DNA of 34,848 bases from a virus (IMGVR_UViG_2651869781_000011), one strand, 5' to 3'. Counted from the first letter of the stretch, positions 2,915-33,542 are shown. A program made the numbers and translations. Notes: generated by a model from the letters alone, not told the origin.

Positions 2915-5900
2915 TCAGGCACTGCATAATCCTCCGTCCCGACGTGATGACTGCATAATTGACACAACCCTGCTGTCGATCAGATCCACCAGCCCCCTGG
3001 CTGACTGCGTATCTATCTCGCCATTGCTCCCTTTATTCTGAATACTGATGTGATACACGGGAGAATAAACAAATCCCCCGCCACCATTCACATTGCCAAT
3101 GGCTCTGACCCCAAGAGAGCCGTCCGCTGCCCGTGTCAGTGGCATGATAGCTTCAGGCCCGGCCTCGCCCATCAGCCCGGCACCTTTCGCAAAAGCAAAA
3201 TACGTCGGTGTATCCACAATAGTGTTACTGTAAGCACTCAGATTTGCCGATGTGTAAACACCACCTTTTGCGTTTGCCACTGCACCGGAAAGCCAGTCGC
3301 CGACCGTACCAAGCCATCCTCCGGCACCGGACATGCTTTTGGAAAGTGACTTCAGCCCGTTAACGATGGCAGCGTTCATCAGAATTTTTGAAACTTCCTG
3401 GAGGATTGAACTCCCCCAGTTTCGCCAGTCCACAACATTTCCGGCCAGTGCATCGGAAATATTTGATACCAGCCCGTCCATAGTGGAAACGACAGCATCT
3501 GCCGCCTGCGAAGCATAATCGGTGGCACTGTCTGCCCAGTTCGTCAGCCCCTCCTGGAGTCCGGCATTCCAGTCACTGCGTAAAGCATCAGCCTTTGCAT
3601 AATAATCCTGCTGATCGCTGAGACGCTCTTCCAGATATTTTTCATTCAGCGATTTTTCCTGTTTCCACAGGGCTTCTTCAATTTCTCCGGCCTGATACTG
3701 TCTCAGCAGCTCGTTATTTTTCTGCTCAAACGCCTGCCGGATACTCCACATTTCCTGGAGTCGTTCACGCATCCGTGAGCCTTCACCATATCCCAGCAAC
3801 TGCGCGTCGTCAGATGCCCGGGCGCTGGCATTACTGTCCGCCAGACTGCTTTCATACGCGGCAAGCTGCTCACGAATCTTTTTCTGGTCGATGAGTGCCG
3901 CATTCTGTAAAAGCGTTTTTTTCTGCGCTTCTGACAGGGTTGATAATTCGCCCTGACTGACCTGATATTTCATCTTAGCCAGTTCAGTATTCTGACCTGC
4001 CAGTGCTATTTGTTCTTTTTGCTGTTTAATCAGCCGTTTATAAATATCTTCTGTTTTTTCCGCTTCGGTCTTTTTATGCGCTTTGGGTTTATTTGCCTGG
4101 TTATTTCGCCAGGCATCCAGTGAGTTATTGATATAATTCTGTCTGGCTGTCTGATACGCCTCTCCCACAAAGCCGAGATCATCCGCAGCATAACCCAGTC
4201 GGGCACGCTCACGGGCTTCCCCCTTCAGGCGGGACAGAGCCAGTTCGCGCTCGCTGTTATTCAGTGCGGTCTGCTGTTTATCATCCAGGGTGGCCTGTGG
4301 CAGCCGTAACGGTACATTCACCAGCCCCTGTCGCTGCTGAAGTAATTCATTACCAAGCCCGAGAAGGCGATTAAACTCGGTATGCTGCCCATTCATGATC
4401 AACATGGACTGATACGCTTTGTTTTGTTCCGCTGCCTGTTGACGGATCAACGCAACCCGCCGCTCCTCCAGCCCGGCAAGCACATCCTGAATGGATTGCG
4501 CTTTGTCCTGCATTTGAGTGAGGCGAGACTGTTCAACTGCCAGTTGATTTGTTGCTTCTGCAAGCCCTTCTGTGACAGTTTTTACCGACGTCATGTGGTT
4601 AATCATAAAACCGTTATCGGTTGTCCAGCCCGGGTTTGCCAGCACATACTGATAGCCAGCAATTTTTTCCTGTAAGGATTTAATCTTACTTTTCTGCTCG
4701 TCAATTAACCTGTTCTGCTCCTTCAGTGCCTGCCGCGTCTTTTCCTCATTATCTGACGCTTCAGGAAGCGACATTGCCGACGTTTTCTGGCGAATTTCGT
4801 CGATTGTTGCGGCATACTGGCGTGCAGATTCTCTGGCCTGCTCCTGATTCTGATACATCGTGTACCAGGCCGTCGCCCCCAGCATGACGAGTCCCGGCAC
4901 ACCACCAACCAACCCCAGCGCACCACTTAACAGACGACTCCCCACTGACGTGACAGTATTCAGCGTTGTCTGTGCCGCTGTTCTGGCCGTAATATTACGG
5001 GTAAGTGACGCCTGGGCAGCTGTCAGCTTCGCTTCTGCGGCTGCCTGCCTTTCGGTACCGCGAGCAGCAACAACCGCCTGTTGCGCACGATAAACCGCCG
5101 CACGCGCCCTGGCGGTTGCTATCTGTGTCCCCCGAAGTTGCGCTTCAGCAAGAGCCACTTCGTTTCTGGCTGCAGTAATTAATCCGGCAGTTGCAGATCC
5201 AGCAGAAGACGCCATATTGCCAAAATATCGGGCTACCCCGACGGCAACCAGAGCACCGGCAGCGGTTGCCACAGTGTCAATATTGCCTGCAATACCATTC
5301 AGCACACCAGAGAGCGTCTTTGTCACTCCGCTTGCCTCGTTCGCACCACCAACCCAGGCCATAAAGGCGTTTTCAACTTTGGTTGCAGAGGATGAAACCG
5401 TATCAGGCATTGCTGCATATTCATCACGCAACGCCCCAAGCTGACTAATCAGTGCAGGGACAACCTTATCGGCAGTCAGTTTTCCGTTATCCGCCATGGC
5501 CTTCAGATCCTTACGGGCAACACCCATTCCCGCAGCCAGCGCACGAATAACACGATCGCCGTTCTCATTCACAGAGTTAAATTCTTCACCACGCAGCACT
5601 CCCTGCGCCAGTGCCTGACTGAACTGCGTGATCACCGAACTGGCTTCTGCTGTACTGGCACCGGATAATTTCAGGCCCGTGGAGATCGCCTCGGTGACTT
5701 TCAGTACCTCCTCAGAACTGTAGCCATACTCCCGCATGGAAGCTGCAGAACGGGCAAAAAGGCTGGCGTTATCAGAAAACGCCGTCCCCGTTCTCTGGCT
5801 GATCGCCATTAATTCACGCTGTGATGCCTGAAAATCATCACTGGACTGTGAGGCCTGCTTCAGACGGGCATTTACTGAATTCCACTCATCGGCGAGAGAA

Positions 5901-6160
5901 ATAAGATGACCGGTAGCAAAAGCCCCGGCAAATGCCCCCGCCATATTCAGTGCCGAAGATTTAGCTGTATTTATCTGATCCGTCACTTCTGCCAGTGCAC
6001 GCCGCATTTCACGGGATGCAGCAGCGGACTGCCGGCCTCCGTTCTGCATGGTACGGTAGTAATCCTGCCCCATACGCGAAGCCCGGGAGATCTCTGACTG
6101 GAATGACCGGGAATTTGCCGAGATTTTAATAATCAGTTCACGTAATGTCGCCACACTCAT
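2915..6160 (-). CDS. H: Tail tape measure protein H
   Basis: 1081 aa, Ala/Gln-rich coiled-coil-like sequence with Gly-rich C-terminal part; located between T and M. Confidence 0.9.
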   Translation of the reverse strand: MSVATLRELIIKISANSRSFQSEISRASRMGQDYYRTMQNGGRQSAAASREMRRALAEVTDQINTAKSSALNMAGAFAGAFATGHLISLADEWNSVNARLKQASQSSDDFQASQRELMAISQRTGTAFSDNASLFARSAASMREYGYSSEEVLKVTEAISTGLKLSGASTAEASSVITQFSQALAQGVLRGEEFNSVNENGDRVIRALAAGMGVARKDLKAMADNGKLTADKVVPALISQLGALRDEYAAMPDTVSSSATKVENAFMAWVGGANEASGVTKTLSGVLNGIAGNIDTVATAAGALVAVGVARYFGNMASSAGSATAGLITAARNEVALAEAQLRGTQIATARARAAVYRAQQAVVAARGTERQAAAEAKLTAAQASLTRNITARTAAQTTLNTVTSVGSRLLSGALGLVGGVPGLVMLGATAWYTMYQNQEQARESARQYAATIDEIRQKTSAMSLPEASDNEEKTRQALKEQNRLIDEQKSKIKSLQEKIAGYQYVLANPGWTTDNGFMINHMTSVKTVTEGLAEATNQLAVEQSRLTQMQDKAQSIQDVLAGLEERRVALIRQQAAEQNKAYQSMLIMNGQHTEFNRLLGLGNELLQQRQGLVNVPLRLPQATLDDKQQTALNNSERELALSRLKGEARERARLGYAADDLGFVGEAYQTARQNYINNSLDAWRNNQANKPKAHKKTEAEKTEDIYKRLIKQQKEQIALAGQNTELAKMKYQVSQGELSTLSEAQKKTLLQNAALIDQKKIREQLAAYESSLADSNASARASDDAQLLGYGEGSRMRERLQEMWSIRQAFEQKNNELLRQYQAGEIEEALWKQEKSLNEKYLEERLSDQQDYYAKADALRSDWNAGLQEGLTNWADSATDYASQAADAVVSTMDGLVSNISDALAGNVVDWRNWGSSILQEVSKILMNAAIVNGLKSLSKSMSGAGGWLGTVGDWLSGAVANAKGGVYTSANLSAYSNTIVDTPTYFAFAKGAGLMGEAGPEAIMPLTRAADGSLGVRAIGNVNGGGGFVYSPVYHISIQNKGSNGEIDTQSARGLVDLIDSRVVSIMQSSRRDGGLCSA

Positions 6161-6199
6161 TCTCCGGACGAAAAAAACCGCCGAAGCGGTTATGTTGAC

Positions 6200-6511
6200 T
6201 CACTGAGACACTATTAAAAGCGCGTTTTCCAGTCCGGCAAATGGATCTGAGGCGCCTTCTGTCTGCTCTTGTTCCCACTGAAGAAGCGCATCATTCAGTG
6301 GTACTTTGACACCCTGCGCACCGTAAACCGCAGAAACTATCTGGGCAGCCCGGATATCAGCCCGCTCATCACCCAGCGGGCTGAACCTGTCAAATTCTGC
6401 CCACATCATGATTTCTGATGCGGACATTTCCCGGCGTAACTCTGACAATGTGCGCCCCATCCTGAGCGCCAGCATCATCAGAAAACGCATCCCCGGAAGC
6501 GCTACTTTTTT
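6200..6511 (-). CDS. T: T portion of the G-T tail assembly chaperone, reached by -1 frameshift from G
   Basis: ORF 6200-6490 is in the -1 frame relative to G; slippery heptamer A_AAA_AAG (minus strand, 6511-6505) ends the G frame just before its TAG. Confidence 0.75.
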   Translation of the reverse strand, partial: KKVALPGMRFLMMLALRMGRTLSELRREMSASEIMMWAEFDRFSPLGDERADIRAAQIVSAVYGAQGVKVPLNDALLQWEQEQTEGASDPFAGLENALLIVSQ

Positions 6512-6888
6512 TTAACCTCGCCGGCATCACTGATCAGTTCCAGAGACTGCCGAAGAAGCCGCGCATGCACCGGGCCATACACGGCAATCACCTGTTCACG
6601 ATCATCCTCTGAAAATACAGGTTGCAGTCCGGTATCACACAGAACATCAATGAACAGTTCAACATCTGCCTCCAGATTTCGGCGGGCGCGCTCCGCAACG
6701 GATAACGGTGTCTCATCATCTTTTGCTTTAACGATCTCCTGCCAGCGCAACCAGGCTTCTGCAGAAGGTTCCCGTAATACAACCGTTGCCCCTTCCCATT
6801 CAGGCACATCAACGGTTTTATGGCGAAACCCCGACATCGTTGCCAGTGCCAGATTACGGATATTTTTAGTCATCACATCTATCCTCAT
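6502..6888 (-). CDS. G: Tail assembly chaperone G
   Basis: 128 aa ending ...GEVKKK* on the slippery site; position between major tail gene and T. Confidence 0.85.
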   Translation of the reverse strand: MRIDVMTKNIRNLALATMSGFRHKTVDVPEWEGATVVLREPSAEAWLRWQEIVKAKDDETPLSVAERARRNLEADVELFIDVLCDTGLQPVFSEDDREQVIAVYGPVHARLLRQSLELISDAGEVKKK

Positions 6889-7592
6889 TAACTGACGGTA
6901 ACAGTGCAGGAAGTGGAGGTCACCTTGCTAACCGGGCTTGCTGAATCAGAAATCTCGCAGGTATACGCACCGGCATCACCGGATACTGCGGATGCCTTAC
7001 TGAACGTTGCCGCCGTCTGTCCGGAAACAGGAGAACCACCTTTCTTCCAGACATAAGAATAAGGCGGCACACCACCGGCAGCCTCAACCACCATTTCGAG
7101 TTTCGCTCCGGCAGAAACCTGCAGCGTGCTGTTTAAATCGACCTTCACTTTCAGTGGCTCTGTCGTCAGTACAGGTTTACCTTTCAGGCGCAGGGAAAAC
7201 GTTGCAGCCACAACTCCATTGGTTCCTGCAGACCAGGTATGCTGACGCACCTCTGCCATAAAGGTAAATCCGTTGCCTGACGGAAAAATAACTTTAAAGC
7301 CATACGTGGTGTCATTGTCATAGGCACTGCGCAACGCGTTCTGGGCAGCATTCAGATAAAAGTTGCCTGACATGGAAATCTCTGACGCGGCACCAAGACC
7401 GTTAATATTTTCCTGCTCAACAGAACACAGCGTGGTGACATCAATATCCTGTTTCTGCCCGGCGGTAAACTGAACCTCTTTAATCGTACAGCTCAGTTCA
7501 AGAAAACTGGCAGAACTCAGCGTTTCTGCCGTTACCGGTGCAGACGAGATCATGACTTTGGTCTGCTGAGAACGTTCAAAATTAGAGGACAT
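6888..7592 (-). CDS. V: Major tail protein with C-terminal Ig-like domain
   Basis: 234 aa; SD AGGAG upstream of ATG 7592; C-terminal Ig/Big_2-like segment (...GVPPYSYVWKKGG...GAYTCEISD...). Confidence 0.8.
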   Translation of the reverse strand: MSSNFERSQQTKVMISSAPVTAETLSSASFLELSCTIKEVQFTAGQKQDIDVTTLCSVEQENINGLGAASEISMSGNFYLNAAQNALRSAYDNDTTYGFKVIFPSGNGFTFMAEVRQHTWSAGTNGVVAATFSLRLKGKPVLTTEPLKVKVDLNSTLQVSAGAKLEMVVEAAGGVPPYSYVWKKGGSPVSGQTAATFSKASAVSGDAGAYTCEISDSASPVSKVTSTSCTVTVS

Positions 7593-7605
7593 ACTCGTCT
7601 CCTGA

Positions 7606-7632
7606 AAATAAAAAAACCCGCCAGCGGCGGGT
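7606..7632 (-). terminator. Hairpin plus T-run immediately upstream of the major tail gene
   Basis: CCCGCC-agc-GGCGGG stem followed on the minus strand by TTTTTTATTTT. Confidence 0.4.
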
Positions 7633-7652
7633 GGGTAAAATCATTAACGACC

Positions 7653-7997
7653 TCAGGCTATTACCTGAAATTCAAGCGTGGCTCTGCTCAGACGGGAATC
7701 AGGATCATAACCCTGCGTTTTAGAAATAACGGAGGGTGCCAGTTGCCTTACCGCATCAAGCGCCTGCTCACGGATATCATCTGCGTCATCAGGTACTGTC
7801 GCCCAGACATCGATCTGCACGGTAATTCTGGATTCAGCCTGACCATCAAGCACATCAGATGCCGTGTCAGACACCACAGAAAACACCAGCCACGGCGGAG
7901 ATACCGCAGGCTTTCCCTCCGTCAGCAGGACCACATAAGGATAAACCTGTCCTCCGGCCAGTTGAGACAGCAGGGAATACAGTGTGGCCTCTCTCAT
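7653..7997 (-). CDS. Tail terminator / tail completion protein (DUF3168-like)
   Basis: 114 aa directly upstream of the major tail gene; family assignment from recall. Confidence 0.55.
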   Translation of the reverse strand: MREATLYSLLSQLAGGQVYPYVVLLTEGKPAVSPPWLVFSVVSDTASDVLDGQAESRITVQIDVWATVPDDADDIREQALDAVRQLAPSVISKTQGYDPDSRLSRATLEFQVIA

Positions 7998-14865: not shown

Positions 14866-15011
14866 AATCGGTCTTACCTATCAATCGTTTGTTCACATTT
14901 CCAAAAAAGTTTTCGAACCTGCGGCGATGCGAGGAAAGGTCAGGCGGCGGTCCTGAGCAGCCTGGGTTGCAGAGATTTGACCCGCCCCTCCCCCACAGAT
15001 GAGAACAGTTA

Positions 15012-15362
15012 TCAGTTGATGCGTTCGCGCGCTGTTTTTGCTTTATGGCAGGACCAGCACAGACTCTGCAGGTTACTGTCTGCATCCGTGCCACCATGAG
15101 CTTTCGGAATGATGTGGTCCACAGTTCTGGCTTCAACGGCTCTCCCATTGCGCAGGCAGTTCTGACACAGATGATTATCACGCTTCAGTATGCGCGCACG
15201 TATGGTATCCCATTTCGAACCATATCCACGCTGGTGGCGGCTCAGTCCGCGTTGATGCTGTACCCATCCTTCGCCACGATGTGTATCACAGTAACCAGAA
15301 CTGTCTGTGGTTGTATCTGCACATCCACGCTTACGACAGGCGCGTGGGATTCGTGATGGCAT
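15012..15362 (-). CDS. HNH endonuclease (packaging-associated)
   Basis: 116 aa, Cys-rich with ...HIIPKAHGGTDADSNLQSLCWSCH...; sits just upstream of terminase as in HK97-like cos phages. Confidence 0.85.
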   Translation of the reverse strand: MPSRIPRACRKRGCADTTTDSSGYCDTHRGEGWVQHQRGLSRHQRGYGSKWDTIRARILKRDNHLCQNCLRNGRAVEARTVDHIIPKAHGGTDADSNLQSLCWSCHKAKTARERIN

Positions 15363-15382
15363 GGAATTTCGTTCTCCGGCTA

Positions 15383-15679
15383 TTAAAGCGCTTGTCCCTC
15401 GGGGAGGATACAGATCACCCCCAACCCCGCAGCCACGGCGTACTGATTATGTTCATCGACAAGATTTATTGTGCTATCAAGTAACTCACGACAGTGGCTT
15501 ACATTCGTTTCAATGCTCAACACCAGTGAATAAGCACTATTCAACTCCTGACCTGATAAGAACGGAGAATCAGCAGAAACAATTTCCGATTTTATTTTTC
15601 GCAGAGCGCAAAGATTTTCTTCAATGCATTTTCTCAGGACAACGCAACGCCCAATCGCCTCATAGTTTTGCTCAGACAT
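15383..15679 (-). CDS. Hypothetical protein (98 aa)
   Basis: Track ORF begins at a TTG; first ATG at 15679 (MSEQNYEAIG...); no signal peptide; between Rz and HNH. Confidence 0.4.
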   Translation of the reverse strand: MSEQNYEAIGRCVVLRKCIEENLCALRKIKSEIVSADSPFLSGQELNSAYSLVLSIETNVSHCRELLDSTINLVDEHNQYAVAAGLGVICILPEGQAL

Positions 15680-15704
15680 TTCACCCACCTGTTTCAAAAG
15701 TACT

Positions 15705-16169
15705 CTACTTAATGCACTGATCGCGGATATATTCCTGCAATCCCCTGATCATTTTTTCGCTGGTTGCAGCTCGCTCTCTGAGGATGAAATAATCCCGTTG
15801 AGCGGAGTCAGTAAGTCCGGGGCTGGCTGCATCATCCACGCCGGAGGAGGCGGTGGCTTCACGCACGGCTGGACAGACTGCTCTGATGCGCAACCGACGA
15901 CGACCAGCGGCAATATCATCACGCAGAGCATCATTTTCAGCTTTCGCATCAGCTAATTCCTTTGAATATTTTGCATCGAGTGCAGCAACGTCACGCTGGC
16001 GCACCTGCATATCAGTAATGATCGCCTCTGCCAGTTTCAGCTCTCTGGCATTGTCATCGCGTTGTGTTTTGTAGGTAATGGCGTTATCGCGGTAATGCTC
16101 TGTTGCCAGCCACAGAGCACTACAGACCATCAGCAGGACAATAATCACGCCATACAGAATTCGGTTCAT
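15705..16169 (-). CDS. Rz: Rz i-spanin
   Basis: From ATG 16169: MNRILYGVIIVLLMVCSALWLATEHYRDNAITYK...; close to lambda Rz as recalled; N-terminal TM anchor. Confidence 0.85.
   Translation of the reverse strand: MNRILYGVIIVLLMVCSALWLATEHYRDNAITYKTQRDDNARELKLAEAIITDMQVRQRDVAALDAKYSKELADAKAENDALRDDIAAGRRRLRIRAVCPAVREATASSGVDDAASPGLTDSAQRDYFILRERAATSEKMIRGLQEYIRDQCIK
15749..15949 (-). CDS. Rz1: Rz1 o-spanin lipoprotein, embedded in Rz in another frame
   Basis: 66 aa MRKLKMMLCVMILPLVVVGCASEQ...PPPPPAWMMQP...; lipobox VVGC, Pro-rich; fully inside Rz. Confidence 0.8.
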   Translation of the reverse strand: MRKLKMMLCVMILPLVVVGCASEQSVQPCVKPPPPPAWMMQPAPDLLTPLNGIISSSESELQPAKK

Positions 16170-16343
16170 TTCACCACCAGCGTATCTGACCGATGAAATA
16201 ACCGGAGCCCATAACCACAAACACCAGCCAGATAAGGATGAACTTCCAGATGGATAATTTTTCAGCCATCACTCGAATCTCCAGAATCAGTTTGCTAAAA
16301 TCAAACACGTTTTCTCCTTTAGCTTTCCCATGGGCAGAAAACA

Positions 16344-16380
16344 AAACCCCGCTTGCTGCCAACAAACGGGGTTTTTGCTT
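16344..16380. terminator. Bidirectional stem-loop with flanking T/A runs between endolysin and Rz
   Basis: AAACCCCG...CGGGGTTT stem followed by TTTTGCTTTTATT on +, and by a T-run on the minus strand. Confidence 0.35.
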
Positions 16381-16465
16381 TTATTCACTTACCTTTTGCC
16401 AGTTTGCAGAATATCGTGCTATCCGCTTGTGTGAGCAAACGGCATTTTTCAGCAAAATATTCTGC

Positions 16466-16999
16466 TTATCTGTCGATCCCCCAGCACACCAGCGCACTCT
16501 CCTGGTCACGACGAATAACCTGACCGTAACAGTTATTTGAACGAATGCGGCAATCACGGCCACCGTCCTTAATCCACCAGCGAATCGCCTCGCATGCGCC
16601 TTTGCGATCACCGGCATTCAGCCGCTTATAAAACGTCGACGGGAAACACTTACCGGGGCCAATGTTATAGGGACAAAATGACGCAATACCTGCTTTTTGT
16701 GGTTCGGTCAGTGGTACTTTTATATTGCGATCCACCCATGCCAGCGCCTTATCACGTTCAATAGCGTTAACCTGGTCGCATTTTTCCTTCGACAGCTTCA
16801 TTCCCGGTATGACGGGCTTACCATCCACCATTGTGGCACCACGACAGATGGTCCATATGCCAGAACCATCACGGTATGCCGTTGTGTGGTTACCTTCTTT
16901 TTCATCCAGAAACTGGTCAAGTATTTGAGGAGCAGACGCGCCTGCAGCAATCAGCGCCAGAACGGCAGCTGACAGGCCGTATTTGATTTTTGCGTTCAT
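16466..16999 (-). CDS. R: SAR endolysin (T4-lysozyme-like, GH24)
   Basis: 177 aa; N-terminal Ala/Gly-rich signal-anchor-release segment (YGLSAAVLALIAAGASAP); resembles Stx-phage-type endolysins as recalled. Confidence 0.9.
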   Translation of the reverse strand: MNAKIKYGLSAAVLALIAAGASAPQILDQFLDEKEGNHTTAYRDGSGIWTICRGATMVDGKPVIPGMKLSKEKCDQVNAIERDKALAWVDRNIKVPLTEPQKAGIASFCPYNIGPGKCFPSTFYKRLNAGDRKGACEAIRWWIKDGGRDCRIRSNNCYGQVIRRDQESALVCWGIDR

Positions 17000-17062
17000 G
17001 GATATTTATCAGAATTTACCGGTTTCTGCCCATGGACAGGTTTATCTGTTCCGGTCAGTGGC

Positions 17063-17413
17063 TTAAGGTTGCGATTCCGGAGGAGTCTTCAGAGAACAAG
17101 TAATTCTTCCCGGTAGCTTTCCTTTGTAGGTTACCCACACATTCTGCGCCTCAAAAATTATGGGGCGTTTTTCTGGCGACGGCTCATCCCATTCACATAA
17201 CCTGGCAGCAACATCCAGAAATACCTGTCTGATTCTCCTTCTGGCTGCTGCCTCATAAAACTCCAGCGCAGCACCTTCAACACGGTCCATGGTGATGTCC
17301 AGGTCAAAAATTTCACCGTCAAAGCGTTCTTTGTTCCGTAAGGCTAAAGTTACCGCAACTTTATTCTCAAAATTGCGGACTCCCTTAACAACCAGTTCAT
17401 AGTTTTGAGTCAT
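17063..17413 (-). CDS. Hypothetical cytoplasmic protein (116 aa) inserted between holin and endolysin
   Basis: ATG 17413 lies 4 nt after the holin stop with a GGGAGAG SD; no TM segment or signal peptide. Confidence 0.55.
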   Translation of the reverse strand: MTQNYELVVKGVRNFENKVAVTLALRNKERFDGEIFDLDITMDRVEGAALEFYEAAARRRIRQVFLDVAARLCEWDEPSPEKRPIIFEAQNVWVTYKGKLPGRITCSLKTPPESQP

Positions 17414-17417
17414 TAAA

Positions 17418-17633
17418 TTACTCTCCCCGCGCAGCCTTACGCTTGTCTTCTCTGATTTTGAAGTACAGATTTGTCAGATAAGTCAGGAAGCCCAGAACCA
17501 GACTCCCCAGCACACCAATCGCAGCCCACTGTGACGGACTGACCTGATCAAGCCACTGTAAAAACCAGTAGCCAGCACTGCCTGCGGAGGTGCCGTAGGC
17601 AATGCCAGTTGAAATTTTGTCCATGGATTTCAT
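17418..17633 (-). CDS. S: Pinholin (phage 21 S-type holin)
   Basis: 71 aa [27 protein letters not shown]...; near-identical to S21 as recalled; pairs with the SAR endolysin. Confidence 0.85.
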
Positions 17634-17689
17634 AGCCTCACCTCCGCAAATAACGGATGGCGTAGTTTTACACTGAGAGATGAAAGGGA

Positions 17690-17720
17690 TTTGAAAAGAA
17701 AAGCCCGCAAAAGCGGGCGA
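17690..17720 (-). terminator. Hairpin plus T-run between the tRNAs and the holin gene
   Basis: GCCCGC-aaaa-GCGGGC stem; minus strand continues TTTTCTTTTC. Confidence 0.4.
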
Positions 17721-17924
17721 AATTGGATCTACAGTCAGGAAAGCACTCTATCCAACAAACCACCCACAGTTAATCGGAATAAAAGCAGAGTGCTTATGAA
17801 TGATCGCCTGCCCGAAGGTTGTTATTCCTGCACAGCAATTTTGCAAAAAAGACGCTCATTCATAACCCAAACGTCTTTCAGTCACTCCGGGCTTTCCCAT
17901 CATCGCAGACTGAAAGACTCTAAC

Positions 17925-17999
<75 letters not shown>

Positions 18000-18002
18000 A
18001 TA

Positions 18003-18078
<76 letters not shown>

Positions 18079-18268
18079 ATTGGTTCTTCGGGTGTGAATG
18101 AGATGCCCGGATACATAATTTACCCTTCCCTCGGAACCGCAGAGATAATACAAATAAATAACCAGAATTCAATATTTGCTTATTCGTCTGTCGAAAAAAC
18201 CAGCAAGATGAAAGAACCGTATTCGCAACCACCAGCGTGTTTAATGTACCGTACCGCTTTTCGGGCAT

Positions 18269-18296
18269 AAAAAAACCCGCTTGGAGGCGGGCTGTA
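18269..18296 (-). terminator. tR'-like intrinsic terminator downstream of Q
   Basis: CCCGC-ctccaa-GCGGG stem followed by T7 on the minus strand, about 80 nt after the Q stop. Confidence 0.5.
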
Positions 18297-18341
18297 AAAA
18301 TTCTTCTAACGTCAGGCACAAAACGCCCATCGTTAGATGCA

Positions 18342-18369
18342 AATTTACCACAGATTCGGGAAAAATCAA
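18342..18369 (-). promoter_or_regulatory. Candidate late promoter PR' (TTGATT-N16-TAAATT) with presumed Q-utilisation region
   Basis: Sigma70-like hexamers on the minus strand just after the Q stop and before the terminator. Confidence 0.35.
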
Positions 18370-18374
18370 CAACA

Positions 18375-19196
18375 CTATCGCGTTACCCTTTTTAACTGCC
18401 GCTCCGCCCATGCCTCTTCAATGTCAAACCGAACCACCAACGTATCGTAAAAGCGTTTCACTGATTTTTTCCACGTATCAAGCGTGATAGCACTCGTCAC
18501 TTTGCATATGGCATTAAATGCCTCCGTTGATGGCAGTCTTTCATAGCCCCGACCACCACAACGCTGGCAGTTCCTGATTACAGGCATACCCTGTTTTTCC
18601 GACTCTTTACGATGAATGGCAACACCACGCCCACGGCAGTCTTTACAGGCAGTGGAAATCTCCCCCTTCCCTTTACATTCAGGACAGGAAACTTTCACCA
18701 CCTCCCGGATTTTTTTCCATTCTTCCCAGTAAGACGGATACACACCCTTCGTACACTTTGCCCATACTGGCGGCTTGCCATCCGGATACTGAACCTTGTT
18801 TGTAAAAACTTCGCTTTCAATAAATTTTTCCCCATGGCAACAAGGGCACTGCTTTTTACTCGCTGCGCTGCGGGCATAATCCTCAAAAGCATACGAAGCC
18901 ATAATGCGCATCACTGCCGGTTTTATTTCTGCCGGAAGTTTTCTTAACGCCGCCACGCGATCGCACTGACTTAATGCATAATCTGCCAATAATTCTGTTG
19001 CCCGCGCCCTGTCATTCATACTAATGCCCATTTTCCCCAGGAACGCAGAAAATCCCATCTCAGCCCGGTTTTGTGTCATACCCTGCGCAGCCATCACATC
19101 AGTGATACTCAGCGCATCTTTTGACGTCGAGACGGATGCATCAGTCAGGCCAGGCGATTTTGGGGAGTAGTATTTCGGTAAATCTTCCAGCTTCAT
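18375..19196 (-). CDS. Q: Late antiterminator Q (lambda Q family, Zn-binding)
   Basis: 273 aa; shares HSPKSP, DVMAAxGM, Cys clusters and C-terminal ...YDxLVV... with lambda Q as recalled; precedes PR'/tRNAs/lysis genes. Confidence 0.8.
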   Translation of the reverse strand: MKLEDLPKYYSPKSPGLTDASVSTSKDALSITDVMAAQGMTQNRAEMGFSAFLGKMGISMNDRARATELLADYALSQCDRVAALRKLPAEIKPAVMRIMASYAFEDYARSAASKKQCPCCHGEKFIESEVFTNKVQYPDGKPPVWAKCTKGVYPSYWEEWKKIREVVKVSCPECKGKGEISTACKDCRGRGVAIHRKESEKQGMPVIRNCQRCGGRGYERLPSTEAFNAICKVTSAITLDTWKKSVKRFYDTLVVRFDIEEAWAERQLKRVTR

Positions 19197-19573
19197 TTGT
19201 TGGCCTGCCCGTCATGCATTATTTCGTAAATCTTCACGCCCAGTCGCCCACCAGGAACGAGCTGACCGCGCACTATATTGATTTCATCAAACTGCTCATC
19301 GTCGATAAGCAGTCCTGCATGTGTCAGTGCATCCAGTGGTGCCTTCAGGATATTGTCCAGGTCGCGGCGGCGATTATCCGGTGGCTCTGCAATAATCCTG
19401 ATTGCCAACCTACCGGACAGATTTAATTTCAGTCGCTGCTGGCGAACAATAAGCTCCACATCATGGCGATAACGCTCACCAGCTTTTGATACAAAATATG
19501 TACTACCACGACGGCGCCAGTAGGTGTTCACCGTCGGCGGGTAAGGCAAAACAAACTCTATGCATTCTGTCAT
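19193..19573 (-). CDS. rusA: Holliday junction resolvase RusA
   Basis: 126 aa MTECIEFVLPYPPTVNTYWRRRG...; typical RusA N-terminus; nin-region position. Confidence 0.85.
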   Translation of the reverse strand: MTECIEFVLPYPPTVNTYWRRRGSTYFVSKAGERYRHDVELIVRQQRLKLNLSGRLAIRIIAEPPDNRRRDLDNILKAPLDALTHAGLLIDDEQFDEINIVRGQLVPGGRLGVKIYEIMHDGQANK

Positions 19574-20629
19574 TTATGCTTTCCACTTCAGGACGCCCGA
19601 ATTTCTCGCGTGCATTAAAAAACGAATCAGCAACAACAACTGGCTACCGTGTTTGTCTTCAAAATCTTTTACTCCGGCGTGTAGTTCGTTATGGCATTTA
19701 CGACACAGCGGAATAACAAACAAATCATCAGCCTTTGTTCCCATTCCTCCCAGTCCATGACCAATGATGTGATGCGGATCATCTGCCTGATTACCGCACG
19801 TCATGCATTTCTGCGTTTTTACCCAGCGCGTGTATACAGGCATCTCTTCCCGTTGTGGTTTCTGGCGCTGGAGATACTGAGCCGGTGACTCCGGATCAAC
19901 GGCAATGCTGACCACCGTCTTTTCCTGTGGCGGGTTTTGCTGGTGGGCGTGAGGCAGCGGCGCAAGATTTTTTGTGCGCTGCTTCAGTATGCTGGTGGCG
20001 GTCTGCTCTCCCGGTACGATGTCGCTTTCGCGGTACACCGAGCGGATTTTTTCCGCACGCAATCCCAGAGAACGACGTAATACTGCCTCCGGCAATACGT
20101 CCGCTACCTGATTGCAGACCGCCCACCAGGATAATTCAGCCAGCGATAACTCCCGCTCCTGTGTACCGTTTATTGCGTGGCGGATGACGTCAATCATCCA
20201 GGATGTCAGGTTTTGTTGAGCAAGTTGCCCGAGTGATTCTGAAGTCTGGTCGCGTAACTGATTATCACAGTGCCAGCACAATACCATCGCGCCGGTACCG
20301 TAACGATGTATGACGGTTTCACTGTGGTGGTAGTCACCATGAGGCCACTGGCAGGATTTAACATGGCGTAACAGCCAGTCAGACAATGCGCCAGCGCCGC
20401 CAGCAGCACGAATCACCCGCTCATCGCTGAAAAATGGCAGTAATGATTTATCTTCCGCGAGCGGCTGGCGCACGGCAGGAACAGCTCCTGACGGCAGACC
20501 GCGCATGCTTTTCGGTTCCGGCTCCACCAGCACCCGGGGATTATGAAATGCCTGCATGGATTCACGGCCCGGCTTAAGGACCACCAGCCCGAGTTCCGGT
20601 ACCAGAACAGGTCGAAGTAATACCCGCAC
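19574..20629 (-). CDS. DUF968 / YdfU-like protein with C-terminal HNH-like Cys/His motif
   Basis: 351 aa, GTG start; C-terminus CMTCGNQADDPHHIIGHG...CRKCHNELH; same position as ydfU in Qin (recall). Confidence 0.55.
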   Translation of the reverse strand: MRVLLRPVLVPELGLVVLKPGRESMQAFHNPRVLVEPEPKSMRGLPSGAVPAVRQPLAEDKSLLPFFSDERVIRAAGGAGALSDWLLRHVKSCQWPHGDYHHSETVIHRYGTGAMVLCWHCDNQLRDQTSESLGQLAQQNLTSWMIDVIRHAINGTQERELSLAELSWWAVCNQVADVLPEAVLRRSLGLRAEKIRSVYRESDIVPGEQTATSILKQRTKNLAPLPHAHQQNPPQEKTVVSIAVDPESPAQYLQRQKPQREEMPVYTRWVKTQKCMTCGNQADDPHHIIGHGLGGMGTKADDLFVIPLCRKCHNELHAGVKDFEDKHGSQLLLLIRFLMHARNSGVLKWKA

Positions 20630-31061: not shown

Positions 31062-33542
31062 ATGAGTAAAGTCTTTATTTGCGCCGCCATTCCGGACGAA
31101 CAGGCAACAGCAGAAGGCGCCAAACCTGTGGCCACTGCCATTGAAGCAGGCGACGAACGCCGGGCAAGAGCCAAATTTAGCTGGTTATTTCTGGAACAAT
31201 ACCCGGAAGCTCAGGACTGTGCTTATAAATTTCTTGTCTGCGAGGATAAACCCGGCATGGCCCGCCCTGCTCTCGATTCCTGGGATTCCGAATATATGCA
31301 GGAAAACCGCTGGAATGAGGAGTCGGCTTCCTTTGTTCCGGTCGACCCTGAACCGGACGCAGAAATTGTTAACTTTAATCAGTTATCTGACGACAAGCGG
31401 GCTGCTGTCCTTGTCAGGTTCGGTACACATGAAAACATCACCGTGGATATGGTCATCAATGCAAGCGGGCTTCTCGGCGATGACGAGATGACGACTTTTG
31501 ATGGACACCTCGCTGAAGCAATTATCCGGACCAGAGAAATTAACGCCATGTATCCAGAGCGTCAGATTGAGTACATCAACGATGCCAGACGTGATTTAAA
31601 ACCAACAGCCAAATGGCCCGACGTTCAGGCGTATTTTCTCGAACGTAAAAAACGCATGGAAAAGGAGCGCAAAGAAGGTGGCGCATATAATTCCGTCGTC
31701 GATCTTGCCCGCGCCAGAGTCAACCGGCAAGGCACTGAAAACTCTGCAGGAAAAACTGACTCCGTAACTGCTGTCATTCGTCGCGAATACAGGCAGACAT
31801 GGAAAACACTGGATGAAGAACTGGCCTACGCTTTCTGGCCTGGTGATATTGATGCCGGAAACATTGACGGCAGCATCCATCGCTGGGCAAAAAATGAAGT
31901 TATCGACAAAGATCGCGAAGACTGGAAGCGTATTTCCGCATCAATGCGCAAACAACCTGATGCCGTTCGCTACGACCGTCAGACTATTTTTGGCCTTGTC
32001 CGTGAGCGTCCGATCGACATTCACAAAGATCCCGTGGCGCTGAACAAATACATCACTGAATACCTGGCGACAAAGGGCGTGTTTGAGGATGAAGAAACAG
32101 ACCAGAGCACTGCTGATATTCTCCAGCCGTCAGCAGCACAAACTGATGCAGTGGAAACTGAAGTATCTGATACCCAAAAAAATGAAAGCGCGCTGGAAAC
32201 TGAACCATCTGTAGAGCGTGAGGGGCCGTTCTACTTCCTCTTCACCGATAAGGATGGCGAAAAATATGGTCGTGCAAACAAACTTTCTGGTCTGAATAAG
32301 GCGCTGGCTGCCGGGGCTACTGAAATCACGAAAGAAGAATATTTTGCCCGTAAAAACGGCACGTACTCAGGTTCACAACAAAATACTGGTGCATCTGACA
32401 CGACCGCACAACCAGAGCCGGTAAAAGTTACCGCTGACGAAGTAAACAAAATTATGCAGGCAGCCAATATCAGCCAGCCTGACGCCGATAAGTTGCTTGC
32501 TGCCTCTCGCGGAGAATTTGTTGCAGGGATTAGCGACCCGAATGATCCGAAATGGGTGAAGGGGATTGAAACCCGCGATTCTGTAAACCAGAACCAGCAA
32601 GAATCGGAACAGAACGACCAGAAAGCGGAACAAAACAGCCAAAATGCGTTACAAAACGAGCCAGAAACGAAACAACCTGAGGCAGTAGCGCAACAGGAAC
32701 CGGAAAAAGTCTGCACCGCCTGCGGTCAGAGCGGTGGCGGCAACTGCCCTGATTGTGGCGCGGTGATGGGCGACGCAACATACCAGGAAACATTCGATGA
32801 AGAGAATCAGGTTGAAGTTCAGGAAAATGATCCGGAGGAAATGGAAGGCGCTGAACATCCACACAAGGAGAATGCTGGCAGCGCTCAGGACCACGCCAGC
32901 GATAATGAAACTGGTGAGACGGCAGATCCCTTAATTGTGGTGAACGGTCATCACGTTATCACATCCACCAGCAGAGTGTGGTACCACCTGATGATCGACC
33001 TTGAAACAATGGGAACCAACACCAATGCGCCCATCGTGGTTATTGGTGCGGTTTTCTTCGACCCACAAACAGGGGAAATCGGGCCAGTATTTTATATCGT
33101 TATCAGTCTGACTGACGCAATGAATACAGGGGCTGCTCCTGACGGTGGAACCATCAAATGGTGGCTGAAGCAGTCCAGTGAAGCCAGAGCTGCCATTTTA
33201 ACAGACCAGGTAAAACTGAAGGATGCCCTTTCGCGGTTTCGGGAGTTCATCAACGAATACTCAGATGAAAAATTCGTTCAGGTATGGGGTAATGGTGCAA
33301 CTTTCGATAACGCAATTTTGCGCACCTCATACGAACGTCTGGACATCCCCTGCCCGTGGCGCTACCACAACGATCGCGATGTACGCACAATCGTTGAGCT
33401 GGGAAAAACAATCGACTTTGATGCTAGAACCGTTATTCCATTCGAAGGCGTTCGCCACAATGCACTGGATGACGCCCGTCACCAGGCAAAATACGTTTCA
33501 GCAATCTGGCAAAAACTGATCCCGAATCCGGTTGATTTTTAA
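31062..33542 (+). CDS. RecE-like large protein with C-terminal DEDDh 3'-5' exonuclease domain
   Basis: 826 aa; GAGG SD; C-terminal motifs MIDLETMG, WGNGATFDNAIL, HNALDDARH; central ...KLLAASRGEFVAGISDPNDPKWVKG... recalls RecE; Cys cluster CTACGQSGGGNCPDCG. Confidence 0.8.
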   Translation: MSKVFICAAIPDEQATAEGAKPVATAIEAGDERRARAKFSWLFLEQYPEAQDCAYKFLVCEDKPGMARPALDSWDSEYMQENRWNEESASFVPVDPEPDAEIVNFNQLSDDKRAAVLVRFGTHENITVDMVINASGLLGDDEMTTFDGHLAEAIIRTREINAMYPERQIEYINDARRDLKPTAKWPDVQAYFLERKKRMEKERKEGGAYNSVVDLARARVNRQGTENSAGKTDSVTAVIRREYRQTWKTLDEELAYAFWPGDIDAGNIDGSIHRWAKNEVIDKDREDWKRISASMRKQPDAVRYDRQTIFGLVRERPIDIHKDPVALNKYITEYLATKGVFEDEETDQSTADILQPSAAQTDAVETEVSDTQKNESALETEPSVEREGPFYFLFTDKDGEKYGRANKLSGLNKALAAGATEITKEEYFARKNGTYSGSQQNTGASDTTAQPEPVKVTADEVNKIMQAANISQPDADKLLAASRGEFVAGISDPNDPKWVKGIETRDSVNQNQQESEQNDQKAEQNSQNALQNEPETKQPEAVAQQEPEKVCTACGQSGGGNCPDCGAVMGDATYQETFDEENQVEVQENDPEEMEGAEHPHKENAGSAQDHASDNETGETADPLIVVNGHHVITSTSRVWYHLMIDLETMGTNTNAPIVVIGAVFFDPQTGEIGPVFYIVISLTDAMNTGAAPDGGTIKWWLKQSSEARAAILTDQVKLKDALSRFREFINEYSDEKFVQVWGNGATFDNAILRTSYERLDIPCPWRYHNDRDVRTIVELGKTIDFDARTVIPFEGVRHNALDDARHQAKYVSAIWQKLIPNPVDF

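Follow-up and report, generated by a model that had tools for sequence, protein, structure and literature searches.

Evidence for a lambda-type G/G-T programmed −1 ribosomal frameshift at an A_AAA_AAG heptamer in a phi467-like tail module

The window analysed here, a stretch of 34,848 nucleotides of viral DNA (IMGVR_UViG_2651869781_000011), carries a tail module in which all genes lie on the minus strand in the order gp17-like tail completion/terminator, major tail, G, T and tape measure. The order major tail–G–T–tape measure is canonical for a G/G-T pair. For long-tailed phages the G/G-T frameshift is textbook knowledge, and the −1 frameshift of their G/G-T chaperones was reportedly treated by Levin in 1993 and by Xu, Hendrix and Duda in 2004. 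The features of the locus are as follows.

6888..7592, minus strand: major tail tube protein (V analogue) with a C-terminal Ig-like domain, directly upstream of G
6502..6873, minus strand: G, predicted tail assembly chaperone, 123 amino acids plus TAG (PF06222, PDB 2OB9, SD)
6512..6514, minus strand: TAA, stop codon of the −1 (T) frame, adjoining the heptamer on its 5′ side and bounding the shift window upstream
6506..6513, minus strand: run of eight A (A8) enclosing the heptamer, possible secondary site of RNA polymerase slippage
6505..6511, minus strand: slippery heptamer A_AAA_AAG in the G frame, its final codon being the last sense codon of G
6502..6504, minus strand: TAG, stop codon of G, adjoining the heptamer on its 3′ side and bounding the shift window downstream
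6200..6505, minus strand: T segment of 101 codons read in the −1 frame, then TGA (PF06223; phrog_14766; phrog_337)
6170..6191, minus strand: terminator-like hairpin, AACCGCTTCGGCGGTT with a T run after it, located past the T stop and before the tape-measure start
2915..6154, minus strand: tape measure protein (H analogue), by analogy the expected binding partner of G and G-T

The genes on either side of the pair were assigned by profile searches. The V analogue matched the major tail protein family phrog_158 (2.2e-108) together with Pfam Ig_2/Ig_3 and tail-tube families, and the H analogue matched Pfam Phage_HK97_TLTM (1.7e-93, HK97-type) as well as TMP_3 and Tape_meas_lam_C. The longest tape-measure ORF starts at ATG 6160, yet a GGAGA abuts that ATG; GTG 6154 has proper SD spacing and the corresponding position is the start in public annotations, indicating that translation probably begins there. 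A second terminator-like GC hairpin with a T run lies at 7632-7616 (minus strand), between the tail-terminator and major tail genes, so that the hairpins at 7632-7616 and 6191-6176 (minus strand) flank the V-G-T block. Six terminator-like sites were found in 5900-7700 against 2.0 expected, and annotated rho-independent terminators occupy comparable places in phage HK446, ahead of G and ahead of the tape-measure gene. Within the late operon, the hairpins flanking V-G-T may serve to stabilise or to attenuate the mRNA.

The product of G aligned with PF06222 (Phage_TAC_1) at 195.7 bits (2.8e-58) over profile positions 1-124 of 124, far above the gathering threshold of 25 bits, and with the ‘tail assembly chaperone’ of PDB entry 2OB9 at 4.7e-49; judged by these sequence matches, G is an HK97-type tail assembly chaperone. 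Translation of the −1 frame yielded a T segment matching PF06223 (Phage_tail_T) at 71.2 bits (1e-19; gathering threshold 25.9 bits) over profile positions 1-69 of 73. A single family, phrog_14766, spans both: of its 224 positions, 1-121 match G and 126-220 match the T segment, indicating that fused G-T proteins of the same family and length are already on record.

The start codons of both reading frames had to be revised. The region given in the preliminary description reaches to 6888, and ATG 6888 does open the longest G ORF, but it lacks an SD sequence (+1.2 kcal/mol) and the PF06222 alignment begins only at residue 6 of that long ORF. The better start is ATG 6873, which is preceded 8 nt upstream by a GAGGA SD (−6.1 kcal/mol), agrees with the Pfam alignment and is the codon from which G is called in near-identical public records; on these grounds it is most likely the true start of G. 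The ATG at 6490 that opens the T ORF proved not to be a conserved start either. It has no SD, and close relatives carry ATA, ATT or GTG in its place, a pattern that suits an internal Met/Ile codon rather than a start. The ATG at 6478, located 24 nt past the G stop, is invariant in the close clade and follows, at a distance of about 11 nt, a weak SD-like GGGG (−5.7 kcal/mol), a value matched by 18% of random 17-mers.

The junction between the two genes reads GAT GCC GGC GAG GTT AAA AAA AAG TAG CGC TTC CGG GGA TGC G on the minus strand. Re-reading of this strand bore out the anatomy given in the preliminary description: G ends with GTT AAA AAA AAG TAG, a canonical slippery heptamer A_AAA_AAG is present at 6505-6511 (minus strand), and T lies in the −1 frame directly after G. 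The heptamer, an efficient slippery sequence in E. coli, stands in the X_XXY_YYZ register of the G frame, and translation of the T frame from 6505 to 6200 is open for 101 codons. This translation runs VALPGMRFLMMLALRMGRTLSEL...LLIVSQ and ends at TGA 6202-6200. The T frame is open from 6511, which gives a G/T overlap of 7 nt and leaves 100 codons past the G stop. Because the heptamer fills exactly the 7 nt between TAA and TAG, it is the sole place at which a −1 shift could join G to T. The predicted G-T protein, join(6873..6505, 6505..6200) on the minus strand, would be 224 amino acids long, and the junction foreseen earlier, EVKKK followed by VALPGMRF, is the one that a −1 shift would produce. 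Any slip inside the A run would give the identical protein, and the informative G-T peptide of a tryptic digest is VALPGMR, whose codons lie ahead of all start codons in the T frame.

The bare heptamer is not enriched in the window (nine copies, with 9.1 expected from shuffles), and the case accordingly rests on register and position. When open frames of at least 100 codons on both strands of the whole window were scanned, 76 in-frame X_XXY_YYZ heptamers were recovered, and among these A_AAA_AAG occurred in a single copy, that at 6511-6505. Two other heptamers from elsewhere in the window can be mentioned here. The slip heptamer of lambda, G_GGA_AAG, occurs in frame at 7917-7911 (minus strand) within the gp17-like tail completion gene; slipping by −1 at this place would lead to a stop after 14 codons, and the heptamer is therefore probably incidental. 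T_TTA_AAA occurs in frame at 14401-14395 (minus strand), three codons before the stop of the small terminase gene, with the large terminase in the −1 frame. Since TerL has its own ATG (14383) overlapping the small terminase stop, this looks like an ordinary gene overlap, not recoding.

Conservation of the junction was examined in close relatives by scanning IMG/VR with a six-sequence alignment as the query, which returned 80 relatives. The arrangement ...TTAAAAAAAAG TAG, with A_AAA_AAG, is retained in 67 of the 80, while a further two carry A_AAA_AAA TAG (A9), which is still slippery, and nine are of the HK97 type. The remaining two (L053 and L073) have A7 instead of A8 and a broken frame: here G continues for about 38 codons in the +1 frame, and reaching T would take a +1 shift. 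Either a homopolymer sequencing error or decay of the prophages would account for the A7. A variant in which A9G fuses the two genes in frame was found at none of the 80 loci. Among 57 unique close-clade sequences, 36.5% of the G-T columns are variable, and the sole substitution within 6515-6502 is G6505 to A, which keeps the slippery site; the stop codon of G, TAG at 6504-6502, is invariant. The chance of observing at most one variable column in 14 is about 0.016, calculated as a binomial from the variable fraction for sites and lineages that are not in fact independent. Longer invariant runs than the 6515-6502 core exist in T and, the core not being the longest invariant run in G-T, conservation within the close clade is by itself only modest evidence.

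Diverged homologues extend the comparison. A tblastn search with the conceptual G-T fusion returned 226 phage records, nearly all of them matching as two pieces in different frames, with identities reaching down to about 36% (Burkholderia phages). The junctions of nine diverged loci were inspected, and in each of them T occupies the −1 frame and the 3′ end of G contains a lysine slip site in frame, as listed below.

Phage 2851, Stx2_EH1910 and Sakai ECs1801: A_AAA_AAG, directly before TAG
phi1026b: A_AAA_AAG, ten codons before the stop
KS9: A_AAA_AAA, 5′ of the stop
LMessi: the heptamer of lambda, G_GGA_AAG, one codon before the stop
HK446: G_GAA_AAG at 763-769, five codons before the stop
Cronobacter ENT39118: G_GAA_AAG at 772-778, one codon before the stop
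Klebsiella P7641: A_GCA_AAG (non-canonical), directly before TAA, in the junction at 796-812

The HK446 and KS9 records, both curated by phage laboratories, annotate a joined, frameshifted G-T CDS. The site of the HK97-type homologues HK446 and ENT39118 (CGG GAA AAG) departs from the canonical G_GGA_AAG, and the tRNA-Glu in the P site would have to pair anew with GGA through a central G-U. In P7641 the shift window is again 7 nt and an ATG lies 2 nt past the stop (AAG TAA AA ATG); this locus may use single-tRNA slippage on A_AAG at the stop, or termination-reinitiation.

Taken with the anatomy of the junction, these comparisons make it very probable that the pair is expressed through a lambda-type G/G-T programmed −1 ribosomal frameshift at A_AAA_AAG. 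The homopolymer that encloses the heptamer nevertheless raises the question of RNA polymerase slippage, by which an extra A added on A8 (6513-6506) would place G and T in frame in the transcript itself. Such an A9 transcript would read GTT AAA AAA AAA GTA and encode EVKKKV, as does the ribosomal product, and the junction peptide therefore cannot tell the ribosomal from the transcriptional route. Transcriptional slippage usually involves an A/T run of at least 9, or of 8 in some cases, and the run in the window is A8; productive slippage on 8-9 A is known in some systems, and An runs with n>7 are slippage-prone (PMC1088944; PMC3711429). Within the close clade the run keeps its length of A8, and two relatives have A9. 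On the other hand, in many bacterial genomes selection against slippage-prone runs is evident only at 9 nt (PMC1088944), and A_AAA_AAG is already the ribosomal shift heptamer of E. coli dnaX (PMC3711429). Moreover, the long homopolymer is not shared by the family: the site is AGAAAAAAG (A6) in 2851 and ECs1801 and GCAAAAAAG in phi1026b, and the same G/T layout is built on GGGAAAG in LMessi and GGAAAAG in HK446. Since homologues with the same layout lack long homopolymers, the family-wide mechanism must be ribosomal. It is thus very unlikely that RNA polymerase slippage is the main route to G-T, and more likely that it makes a minor additive contribution.

A combination of the two processes can also be envisaged, in which the A8 run set between the −1-frame stop and the G stop would constitute a minimal dual-level recoding signal in the phi467-like clade. 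G-T would then have two sources: −1 slippage of the ribosome, aided by the slow decoding of the TAG next to the site, and insertion of an extra A by RNA polymerase. We give this reading little chance. If it were true, the G:G-T ratio would differ from lambda's 30:1 and would possibly be tunable.

The annotation of T in public records points to a different alternative, namely that a free T protein of 92-96 amino acids is made by initiation or termination-reinitiation at ATG 6478 (or 6490), the heptamer being incidental. PGAP and other annotations start T at ATG 6478, and this codon has in its favour its invariance, its position 24 nt past the G stop and the weak GGGG element; the non-canonical A_GCA_AAG of P7641, with its nearby ATG, points the same way. 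The comparative data are against it, however. ATG 6490 is not conserved, the SD-like GGGG is missing in 2851, ECs1801 and HK446, and at the FLM position KS9 lacks an ATG. The T-frame residues that precede the first conserved ATG (V/A-x-x-P-G/E-x-R/K-F-L-M) are kept while the DNA differs, and in-frame slippery lysine sites are kept at the 3′ end of G across the family. Fused G-T proteins are on record in phrog_14766, and lambda T has been found only as G-T, the fusion and the ratio both being required (PMC5009743). That T is made solely as a separately initiated protein, with an incidental heptamer, is therefore extremely improbable, and a programmed −1 shift remains the preferred reading, although ATG 6478 may yield some free T.

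Stimulatory elements were sought on both sides of the heptamer. The downstream 50 nt folded no better than shuffles (z +0.99), and although a value of z −1.9 was obtained for the downstream 85 nt, the main stem there begins about 21 nt from the site. A consensus fold of eight homologues reached only −2.94 kcal/mol and contained just a 6-bp hairpin, which lies inside the conserved ALRxGR coding motif. A downstream RNA structure as a conserved stimulator was accordingly rejected, given the shuffle-level fold, the distant stem and the weak consensus, which agrees with Table S8 of Sharma et al. (ddG 0.02). An upstream GAGG was likewise rejected as an SD-like stimulator: its distance of 4 nt from the heptamer is wrong for stimulating a −1 shift, and the element is variable within the close clade and missing from the homologues. 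With no conserved stimulatory structure or SD, the efficiency of shifting is expected to be low, and A_AAA_AAG by itself probably supports shifting at a low level, by analogy with lambda.

What was observed directly is the anatomy of the sequence, its homologies, the order of the genes and the conservation, in evolution, of a two-frame layout with its slip site; from these we infer slippage in this phage, with an efficiency of probably a few per cent. According to the proposed mechanism, most ribosomes translating G (6873 to 6502) would terminate at TAG and release the 123-amino-acid chaperone, while a small fraction would slip back by one base on A_AAA_AAG (6511-6505). The slip would take place with two tRNA-Lys on AAA and AAG or, alternatively, with a peptidyl-tRNA-Lys on AAG and the slowly decoded TAG in the A site. 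Slipped ribosomes would then read GTA GCG CTT... in the −1 frame for 101 further codons, generating the 224-amino-acid fusion ...EVKKK-VALPGMRFLMMLALRMGRTL.... In lambda, the binding partner of G is the tape measure and that of T the major tail protein (PMC5009743), and the functions of G and G-T are assigned here by analogy: G and the G part of G-T would coat the tape measure protein, the T part would recruit the major tail protein and so start tube polymerisation, and both proteins would be absent from the final virion. By the same analogy, the efficiency of slippage would set the G:G-T ratio.

The locus is widespread and, in the records that we examined, annotated in a different way. Over 6100-7000 the window shares 99.9% identity with Escherichia phage phi467 (LN997803) and 97-99% with ten further coliphage records, and the segment occurs in 902 of 5,426 complete E. 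coli genomes. A slippage annotation is absent from all three near-identical records examined (vB_EcoM-606R7, E. coli 2015C-4136CT1 and phi467), and no near-identical record that we looked at includes the 224-amino-acid G-T fusion. Instead, PGAP and the phi467 record give T as a separate 92-amino-acid gene starting at the internal ATG 6478. It is labelled ‘phage tail assembly protein T’ or ‘hypothetical protein’ (NZ_CP027550, LN997803) and, in another near-identical E. coli record, ‘DUF4035 domain-containing protein’; the phage record ON470580 cuts the region into three short ‘tail assembly chaperone’ CDSs.

Outside this segment the window is a mosaic. The tail module is phi467-like (99.9%; an Stx2f phage), but the Q-to-lysis region is not, and 15000-20000 is covered to 52-64% by other coliphages at about 88-94% identity. 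The interval between Q (18375-19196) and the lysis genes holds no ORF of Shiga-toxin size; it contains instead genes for tRNA-Gly(tcc) and tRNA-Thr(tgt), at 17925-17999 and 18003-18078 (minus strand). The Stx2f genes carried by phi467 were found in none of the ten large ORFs scanned for them (TerS/TerL, capsid, Q, the 19.5-23.1 kb block and 31062-33542).

The kind of signal described here is already known, and the gene family is already catalogued for the G/G-T frameshift. For the biology of recoding the locus offers nothing new, the same heptamer being listed at the same position in a homologue that is 68% identical. Its value lies mainly in annotation, since T is given as a separate small gene in a common E. 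coli prophage tail module; a corrected annotation would supply the right protein for studies of tail assembly and for proteomics databases.

Four known systems can be set beside the locus. The E. coli dnaX gene (tau/gamma) shares the identical slippery heptamer A_AAA_AAG. Its signal comprises an upstream SD-like stimulator and a downstream stem-loop, with about 50% shifting and a shorter product. A stimulated signal of the dnaX type was looked for in the window, and here the heptamer is present whereas a conserved SD-like element and a stem-loop 5-9 nt away were not found; unlike in dnaX, moreover, the product of the shift would be the longer one.

A close counterpart is the ECs1801/ECs1802 pair of Sakai prophage Sp9 (E. 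coli O157:H7), whose G is the 68% identical one. ECs1801 and gp53/gp52 of the Stx phage 2851 resemble the window in having A_AAA_AAG followed by TAG, T in the −1 frame and the same gene order. They differ from it in several details: ECs1801 ends AGA AAA AAG TAG, with a run of A6 as against A8, the −1 frame in ECs1801 and 2851 is open for 22 nt upstream of the stop as against 7 nt, and the sequence of their T-frame linker is different. Sharma et al. (2014) placed cluster A_AAA_AAG_25, which contains ECs1801 as a tail assembly chaperone, among the expected true cases (PMC4066793). This cluster has no conserved SD, and its downstream hairpin is of background stability (ddG 0.020 ± 0.023; Sharma Table S8, PMC4066793).

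HK97 gp13/gp14 (PDB 2OB9) was compared through HK446, whose record cites the HK97 proteins. PF06222 is shared with the window at 61-64% identity, the pair again lies between the major tail and tape-measure genes, and in HK446 a joined −1 CDS is annotated. The slip site differs, being G_GAA_AAG five codons before the stop and within an overlap of 49 nt, compared with 7 nt in the window; HK446 also has an extra small ORF between T and the tape-measure gene, and its terminator is upstream of G, not of V. In the HK97-like tail assembly chaperone cluster, Antonov et al. (2013) measured two genes and reported 6% and 7% frameshifting (PMC3711429).

Lambda G/G-T is the founding case, in which a ratio of about 30:1 is critical (review PMC5009743). 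The preliminary description had taken the pair to be as in lambda, which holds for the mechanism, the gene position and the T domain but fails for the G domain, this being HK97-type and not of the lambda gpG type. Lambda gpG belongs to PF06894 (Phage_TAC_2) and the G of the window to PF06222, and a Pfam profile search gave no match to PF06894 in the latter. Direct similarity to the lambda proteins was not significant by BLASTP (E 4.9 for G, 0.23 for T), only the profile family of T being common to both; PF06223 is matched by lambda T at 54.1 bits (2.1e-14). The lambda site is G_GGA_AAG and lies five codons before the G stop. Common to lambda and the window are the class of mechanism, the position of the genes, the lack of a required RNA structure and a shift on the lysine codon AAG.
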